Assembly (NCBI RefSeq): GCF_003334335.1
Contig: NZ_QOWQ01000163.1
Length of the DNA: 650 bases
Source: Escherichia coli
GTDB lineage: Bacteria > Pseudomonadota > Gammaproteobacteria > Enterobacterales > Enterobacteriaceae
Reading direction: 5' to 3' (one strand)
In this document: positions 350 through 513 of the stretch, in pieces
Layout: every line of letters begins with the position of its first letter
How positions within the stretch are numbered: the first letter of the stretch is position 1
Translations under genes and position numbers: made by a program
Notes under the pieces: generated by a model
The model's database searches: none
Seen by the model: only the letters and a program-made list of their open reading frames with translations
What the model was told of the DNA's origin: nothing

Positions 350-366
350 ATGATAATAATTATCAT
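350..366. repeat. 17-bp perfect palindrome ATGATAAT-A-ATTATCAT (8-bp arms around one central base), Fur-box-like; function unassigned
   Basis: Read directly: 350-357 ATGATAAT, 358 A, 359-366 ATTATCAT, which is the exact reverse complement of the left arm. On the other strand it reads GATGATAATTATTATCAT, close to the Fur consensus GATAATGATAATCATTATC. The palindrome is certain; any function is not. Confidence 0.6.
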
Positions 367-513
367 CTACATGTCACAACGTGCATCTACGCCATCAAAC
401 CACGTCAAATAATCAATTATGACGCAGGTATCGTATTAATTGATCTGCATCAACTTAACGTAAAAACAACTTCAGACAATACAAATCAGCGACACTGAAT
501 ACGGGGCAACCTC

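Follow-up and report, generated by a model that had tools for sequence, protein, structure and literature searches.

Cos and host regulator sites in lambda-type prophages

Phage lambda cos is ordered cosQ-cosN-I2-cosB. According to the Feiss laboratory, it is a region of about 200 bp with cosQ, cosN and cosB, and packaging termination requires cosQ, cosN and I2 (PMC4669245). On the side of interest here cosQ is, by genetics, the outermost cos subsite (PMC4669245). The right end of lambda carries no annotation in the reference record, J02459.

Two host regulators have been mapped next to cos in the E. coli K-12 prophages DLP12 (ylcI/nohB) and Qin (nohA/ynfO). Chen et al. (2007) describe two Fur sites ahead of nohA, with 22.3 and 12.6 bits, at distances of 233 and 239 bp. 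The Fur sites of this Qin copy are gel-shift positive, and a cluster of 25.3 bits is predicted for nohB, in DLP12 (PMC2189734). The nohA sites were first recovered by fur titration (Vassinova and Kozyrev, 2000, as cited in PMC2189734). In the genome-wide FNR study of Myers et al. (2013), nohA has both an FNR peak and an entry as a gene repressed by Fur, and it is assigned to the Fur-masked category (PMC3688515, Table 4).

The FNR consensus is TTGAT-N4-ATCAA (PMC3688515). Among the matches listed in Table S6 of that study are TTGATGCAGATCAA at ylcI/nohB and TTGATCTGCATCAA at nohA/ynfO, both of them under ChIP-seq peaks, which are entered there without nucleoid-protein overlap. Both sites have a PatSer score of 16.68, which is among the highest of the Table S6 matches listed. 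The peaks are positive by MOSAiCS, NCIS and CisGenome (ChIP-seq), by CMARRT (ChIP-chip) and in an earlier ChIP-chip study (Table S5). At the DLP12 copy, Myers et al. estimate ylcI to be the FNR target. No FNR-dependent expression change is recorded at ylcI/nohB or nohA/ynfO, in a data set that covers glucose minimal medium only (Table S9); the near-identical DLP12 and Qin copies may complicate the measurement of expression. The Fur and FNR sites described below are thus already published for the K-12 copies.

The cos junction in the window

The stretch of DNA analysed here (the window, 650 nt) is the cos junction of a lambda-type prophage, in the orientation opposite to the standard lambda map. 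It is 100% identical to many E. coli chromosomes, with DLP12-type copies in which the flanks are annotated as nohD on the minus strand and ylcI on the plus strand. Identity is 98.5% to circularly permuted lambda records that run across the junction, and about 98% to lambda. The end of lambda J02459 falls at window position 315, and a window position x of 315 or above corresponds to lambda 48502-(x-315). Window positions 346-513 are the K-12 DLP12 copy base for base, and the K-12 Qin copy is identical from 391 onward. The features are collected in Table 1.

Table 1. Features of the cos junction (window coordinates)
Feature	Positions	Strand	Basis
nohD, 5' part (lambda Nu1-like small terminase, DNA-packaging protein)	1-125	-	start codon 125-123; annotation in 100%-identical E. 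coli and phage matches
cosN, 12-nt cohesive end AGGTCGCCGCCC (= GGGCGGCGACCT on the minus strand)	303-314		sequence; end of lambda J02459 at 315; phi80 sticky-end annotation of the aligned 12 bases
cosQ, GGGTCCT on the minus strand, packaging-termination subsite	338-344	-	annotation of phage 434, transferred at 99-100% identity
Fur-box cluster, overlapping 19-mers 346-364 (16/19 to GATAATGATAATCATTATC) and 352-370 (15/19 and 14/19)	346-370		around the palindrome ATGATAAT-A-ATTATCAT at 350-366
Promoter-like site toward cos and nohD: -35 GTGACA (377-372), 16-nt spacer, -10 TATCAT (355-350)	350-377	-	consensus scan only; overlaps Fur box
CATCTAC, copy 1: last 7 nt of Fur 19-mer 352-370	364-370	+	consensus match
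CATCTAC, copy 2: chance match in polymorphism hotspot	384-390	+	variation among copies
CGTCA/TGACG inverted 5-mers	403-424		present; positions 405 and 406 vary
Imperfect inverted repeat of 13 nt, ATCAATTATGACG/CGTATTAATTGAT, 7-nt loop	412-444		inverted 8-mers are its outer ends; chance P about 0.03
FNR site TTGATCTGCATCAA, perfect TTGAT-N4-ATCAA	440-453		10/10 specified bases; 74 nt upstream of ylcI start codon
Predicted -10 GACAAT of class II FNR-dependent ylcI promoter; predicted TSS near 488	475-480	+	geometry only
ylcI, 5' part (YlcI/YnfO family, DUF3950), probable ribbon-helix-helix protein	514-650	+	annotation; ATG at 514; Pfam DUF3950 2.9e-20; NCBIfam YlcI_YnfO_N

The window resembles lambda cos in having cosN, cosQ and cosB at 98% identity. 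Lambda, phi80, HK225 and the Stx1a phage all have an identical cosQ. The cosB part contains a 25-nt inverted repeat (150-174/182-206) and a 12-nt direct repeat, AGAAAGGAAACG and AGAACGGAAACG (150-161/251-262). By their position on the lambda map, we take these to be the terminase-binding sites R1, R2 and R3. Between cosQ and ylcI lies the spacer with which this analysis is concerned. It holds a group of short repeats that starts 20 bp from cosQ; this group is outside the genetically defined cos and, in contrast to cosQ and cosN, is not common to the other phages that have the same two subsites.

Short repeats in the spacer

A sequence-only reading of the window had noted these repeats at 364-445 and proposed that they might be operator-like sites of a ribbon-helix-helix (RHH) protein encoded next to them, or else elements of the packaging signal. 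The repeats are present as described: CATCTAC as a direct repeat at 364-370 and 384-390, the inverted 5-mers CGTCA and TGACG at 403-407 and 420-424, and the inverted 8-mers ATCAATTA and TAATTGAT at 412-419 and 437-444. Their placement in AT-rich DNA between cosQ (338-344) and the ylcI start (514) is correct, with a GC content of 39% for 364-445. The region is also non-coding, as was assumed; a mechanical open reading frame of 85 amino acids (241-498) crosses cosN, and it would be frameshifted by natural insertions of 7 and 2 bp. The 8-mers extend to arms of 13 nt (412-424/432-444) that are 85% complementary and enclose a 7-nt loop.

Chance levels were taken from dinucleotide shuffles. A 7-mer direct repeat is expected by chance: for 364-445 the probability of at least one is 0.19-0.25, and for the entire spacer (345-513) it rises to 0.5-0.8. 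The exact inverted 8-mer departs mildly from chance (P = 0.03-0.04). Within 364-445, five inverted 5-mers with a separation of up to 25 bp are observed versus 1.8 expected (P = 0.07), part of them presumably nested in the longer inverted repeat; CGTCA/TGACG is too short for an individual test. Accordingly, one of the three repeats, the inverted 8-mer, is above chance, and marginally so; the other two are not.

The spacer has roughly 6,900 copies in E. coli. Variation was followed in an alignment of 42 distinct versions from 88 loci, together with lambda, mEp332, the FORC_069 lineage (86% identical) and both K-12 copies. In the second copy of CATCTAC, five of the seven positions vary among the 42 distinct copies; lambda, mEp332 and K-12 Qin have GCGTGGAG in its place, and the FORC_069 type has TGTGTAC. 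The first copy is polymorphic as well (CATCTAT, CATCTGC), is followed directly by a 7-bp insertion in three versions, and is not conserved in the alignment with phi80, HK225 or the Stx1a phage. CGTCA is replaced by CGAGA in the FORC_069 type. Within the spacer, 407-445 varies least, with C414T as the sole change found in more than one distinct sequence (three copies). A compensatory change for C414T was sought among the 42 distinct copies, and none was found. The 33 bp directly upstream of the FNR box (407-439) are invariant even in the FORC_069 lineage, in which the flanks change every 8-10 nt. One copy, in E. coli 720632 (L005), has an IS1A inserted 44 bp upstream of ylcI, at about window position 470, with loss of the FNR box and of all cos-ward DNA.

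The repeat cluster is therefore not a single element. The sequence-only reading had itself cautioned that AT-rich DNA often contains such short repeats by chance, and this holds for two of the three, CATCTAC and CGTCA/TGACG, which are neither conserved nor above chance frequency. Chance accounts for the second CATCTAC and for the CGTCA/TGACG pair, which lie in AT-rich DNA that varies fast; the first CATCTAC forms the final 7 nt of the second Fur 19-mer. The repeats themselves are of little importance: noise accounts for two of them, and the remaining one is a by-product of a transcription-factor site that is catalogued in K-12.

The FNR box

That site is the FNR box at 440-453. The right arm of the inverted 8-mer, TAATTGAT (437-444), is the extended left half-site of the box, which continues to 453 and so runs past the end of the repeat region. 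The box was missed in the sequence-only reading because only its left half lies within 364-445. It came to light when the spacer was compared with the upstream regions of distant DUF3950 genes: every 8- or 9-mer in common fell on ATCAAT. A perfect FNR box occurs in 0.17% of dinucleotide shuffles of the window. The half-site cores (TTGA-N6-TCAA) are invariant in the 42 copies, and the 4-nt spacer between them varies.

The left arm, ATCAATTA, is an orphan FNR-like half-site. A second FNR site built on an orphan ATCAA at 412-416 or at 394-398 was considered and rejected, as neither gives a match with two or fewer mismatches; in the whole window there are no other FNR sites with up to two mismatches.

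The published FNR sites at ylcI/nohB and nohA/ynfO do not differ in sequence from the box in the window. They have the same divergent, intergenic position and a distance to the gene that allows class II activation (-41.5). The repeats noted in the sequence-only reading cover the left half-site only. The coordinates agree, with 1634706 - 1634391 = 315 leading to window position 440. FNR has been shown by these data to occupy 440-453 in vivo on the identical K-12 sequence, and the box is one of the best, among the matches listed, in the genome-wide K-12 FNR list.

At a third K-12 locus, yjiT (L117, 3545-3558), the same 14 bases, TTGATGCAGATCAA, lie under an FNR ChIP peak. The possibility of a hidden DUF3950 gene at this locus was rejected: the site is inside the yjiT pseudogene, the flanks are unrelated and no DUF3950-like open reading frame is present.

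The Fur cluster beside cosQ

The cos-proximal end of the spacer is occupied by two Fur-type 19-mers which overlap at 6-bp spacing, with best matches to GATAATGATAATCATTATC of 16/19 and 15/19. The published Fur positions (233 and 239 bp from nohA) fall at 358 and 364 in the window. The cluster thus resembles those of nohA and nohB in both the arrangement of overlapping 19-mers 6 bp apart and the position relative to the nohA start. It differs from the nohA cluster in sequence. The Qin copy departs from the window box at positions 350 and 358; the gel shift was made on the lambda/Qin-type box, GTGATAATGATTATCATC, whereas the window has the DLP12-type box, ATGATAATAATTATCATC. In vitro binding of Fur has been shown for the lambda/Qin-type version, and the DLP12-type box of the window is a predicted Fur site (25.3 bits).

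All five lambdoid right ends, among them those of lambda, phi80, HK225 and the Stx1a phage, retain TGATAATnnTTATCA, the core of the palindrome within the cluster. The palindrome is the last part of the shared cos-proximal block, and its conservation could reflect packaging, Fur binding, or both.

A promoter-like site directed toward cos and nohD was found by consensus scan (Table 1). As it overlaps the Fur box, and as Fur regulates nohA, this would be the Fur-repressed promoter of nohD/nohA.

Probable divergent control of nohD and ylcI

Taken together, the sites suggest that cos/nohD (minus strand) and ylcI (plus strand) are separated by a divergent control region, structured by Fur and FNR sites; we put the probability of this reading at about 0.8. 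The right end of lambda would then be a control region for two divergent genes and not an inert spacer or an additional packaging signal. The proposal that the spacer is a regulatory region bound by proteins is thus retained, while the proteins proposed for it are replaced, the sites being those of the host regulators Fur and FNR.

The following working may be envisaged. The Fur cluster (346-370) adjoins cosQ and overlaps the promoter-like site toward cos and nohD, and Fur would repress this minus-strand promoter, which reads into cos/nohD. On the other strand, FNR bound with the centre of its box at 446.5 would activate ylcI from about -41.5, the class II position. The predicted -10 hexamer is GACAAT, and GGGG (503-506) may serve as the ribosome-binding site of ylcI. 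A scan for plus-strand sigma-70 promoters gave none at the threshold used, and candidates searched by hand were weak before the FNR geometry pointed to GACAAT. At the equivalent spot, read by eye, two other DUF3950 loci (L102 and L106) have GACAGT and GAAAGT.

The block 407-439 is as invariant as the FNR box itself. FNR alone is insufficient to explain this, and a second bound factor or an UP-like element at 407-439 is therefore possible.

YlcI and other explanations of the inverted repeat

One candidate for a second factor is YlcI itself. The protein matches Pfam DUF3950 (2.9e-20) and NCBIfam YlcI_YnfO_N, and belongs to a PHROG of unknown function. The papers covered by a literature search give no account of the function of DUF3950. 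YlcI is a probable ribbon-helix-helix protein. In the AlphaFold monomer (pLDDT 67) two helices follow an extended N-terminus, and the Foldseek matches are nearly all RHH proteins (NikR, Arc, ParD2, PrpA, ArtA), every one with E > 1. In hhalign, NIRFP is in register with NLRWP of Arc at a probability of 5%, and there are weak PHROG matches to Arc-like and HicB-like families. A PDB sequence search with YlcI and the family profile gave no RHH match.

If YlcI acted as an RHH repressor, the 13-nt inverted repeat (412-424/432-444), which is upstream of the FNR box and overlaps it, could be its autoregulatory operator. The setting recalls the operators of Arc, Mnt, CopG and omega, with short repeats in an AT-rich promoter region and a small RHH-like gene adjacent. 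The model pattern, the RHH-dominated fold-search list, the register with Arc and the weak PHROG matches agree with this, as does the location of the repeat in the least variable part of the spacer (407-445). The evidence for the RHH fold is, however, sub-threshold throughout (pLDDT 67, Foldseek E > 1, hhalign 5%). Half-sites 25 bp apart lie on opposite helical faces, which is atypical for RHH operators, and this is the centre-to-centre distance of the perfect 8-mers. C414T breaks the symmetry in three distinct copies, with nothing to compensate.

Comparison with homologues also speaks against the operator. The ylcI homologue of Stx phages has 87% identical DNA from exactly the ATG onward, over the N-terminal coding part, and is preceded by an unrelated 41-bp spacer that adjoins an HNH gene and has neither the ATCAATTA motif nor the inverted repeat. 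The repeat is also absent at L102, L106 and L112, which keep the FNR box alone. Unlike the repeats of known RHH operators, those of the window do not recur upstream of homologues; the only words shared are those of the FNR half-site. The suggestion that the repeats are operator sites of the RHH protein thus finds no support, and a YlcI operator, putative in any case, is unlikely here.

Autoregulation may nevertheless occur somewhere in the family, as a distant DUF3950 subfamily, marked by 'KGIRFPHE', has two or three copies of locus-specific palindromes upstream. These are of 10-12 bp, GTGTTTAAACAC, GTGTTAGAACAC, TGTGCGCACA and ACACGTCAACGTGT, at L105 (~400-607), L118 (~315-444), L119 (~390-517) and L121 (~550-681), and this subfamily has no FNR box. 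The palindromes resemble co-evolving operators, which hints at autoregulation in that branch.

The inverted repeat might also be read at the RNA level, as a hairpin that serves processing or stability in a late minus-strand transcript across cos or in the ylcI leader. A hairpin is predicted on both strands, with -8.4 and -9.0 kcal/mol and z-scores of -1.7 and -2.1, but this is weak stability and close to the range of shuffled sequences. An Rfam scan of 345-513 at a permissive E-value gave nothing, and a terminator scan found no terminator-like site in the spacer. Compensatory substitutions are likewise lacking, and C414T would be tolerable as a G-U pair on one strand only. In addition, with a transcription start near 488 the hairpin would be upstream of the ylcI transcript. 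A role as an RNA element is very improbable.

An extension of the packaging signal, with additional terminase or IHF sites past cosQ that aid packaging termination, is hardly credible: cosQ is nearby (20-100 bp) and the spacer is intact in all lambda-type genomes examined, but phi80, HK225 and the Stx1a phage, which keep cosN, cosQ and the palindrome, share no sequence with the window beyond about 366-372, so that the repeats are not part of the shared packaging signal, and cosQ is the outermost subsite, an IS1-truncated copy and indel variants of the spacer occur naturally, and IHF, which had been named as a possible binder, has no consensus match with up to one mismatch in 345-513, the sole cos-side match (224-236) being inside cosB.

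FNR boxes upstream of other DUF3950 genes

What is new here is modest, namely that the FNR box is conserved across the DUF3950 family and occurs in lambda itself. TTGATATAAATCAA and TTGATGTAAATCAA are found in two unrelated chromosomal contexts, at -70 and -76 from the start codon versus -74 in the window. In a first set of eight independent contexts outside lambda, three show an FNR box, with no more than one mismatch, in the 150 nt upstream of the gene, versus 0.066 expected (P about 5e-5). The boxes in these three are at -70, -76 and -73, the last value being based on a corrected start codon, as the start was miscalled. An FNR box at a constant 70-76 nt from DUF3950 starts, with no other upstream sequence shared, suggests that the family is oxygen-regulated. 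The conserved spacing offers a concrete handle on the role of YlcI/YnfO.

A broader proposal is tentative, and we consider it more doubtful than probable. The YlcI/YnfO (DUF3950) family would be a conserved direct target of FNR, from several enterobacterial contexts to lambda; anaerobiosis would switch on a small RHH-like DNA-binding protein encoded beside cos; and 407-439 could be a second input, possibly an operator for YlcI.

Searches of genome contigs with the YlcI protein return mostly lambda-contaminated assemblies and close Escherichia copies. The close 'homologues' (P0001-P0120) are mostly from ENA contigs of ~3.5 kb that represent the lambda right end and encode frameshifted pseudo-proteins; these frameshifted pseudo-homologues were excluded from the family alignment. 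Fragments of the lambda right end of 300-500 bp are present in assemblies of unrelated taxa (Paenibacillus, Algoriphagus, Colwellia and others). They look like contamination with lambda control DNA, which pollutes the family.

The DUF3950 gene is divergent from Nu1 in lambda-type phages and from an HNH gene in Stx phages. Two DUF3950 proteins, P0198 and P0255, run on into a small-terminase N-terminal domain; for P0198 this is a Pfam Terminase_2 match at 2.4e-6, and P0255 was judged by alignment only. Other members of the family are in ordinary chromosomal loci, and the link to the packaging module is therefore not strict.

Some DUF3950 genes are found beside respiratory genes (L101, 2501-2680; L120, 1201-1383). 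One directly follows the genes for cytochrome bd subunits I and II. Another is between a molybdopterin oxidoreductase gene and UbiA/COX4_pro (cyo-type) genes; at this further locus, between the molybdoenzyme gene and the cyo-type oxidase genes, a weaker CRP/FNR-type site, GTGATTGATATCAT, is present at -72.
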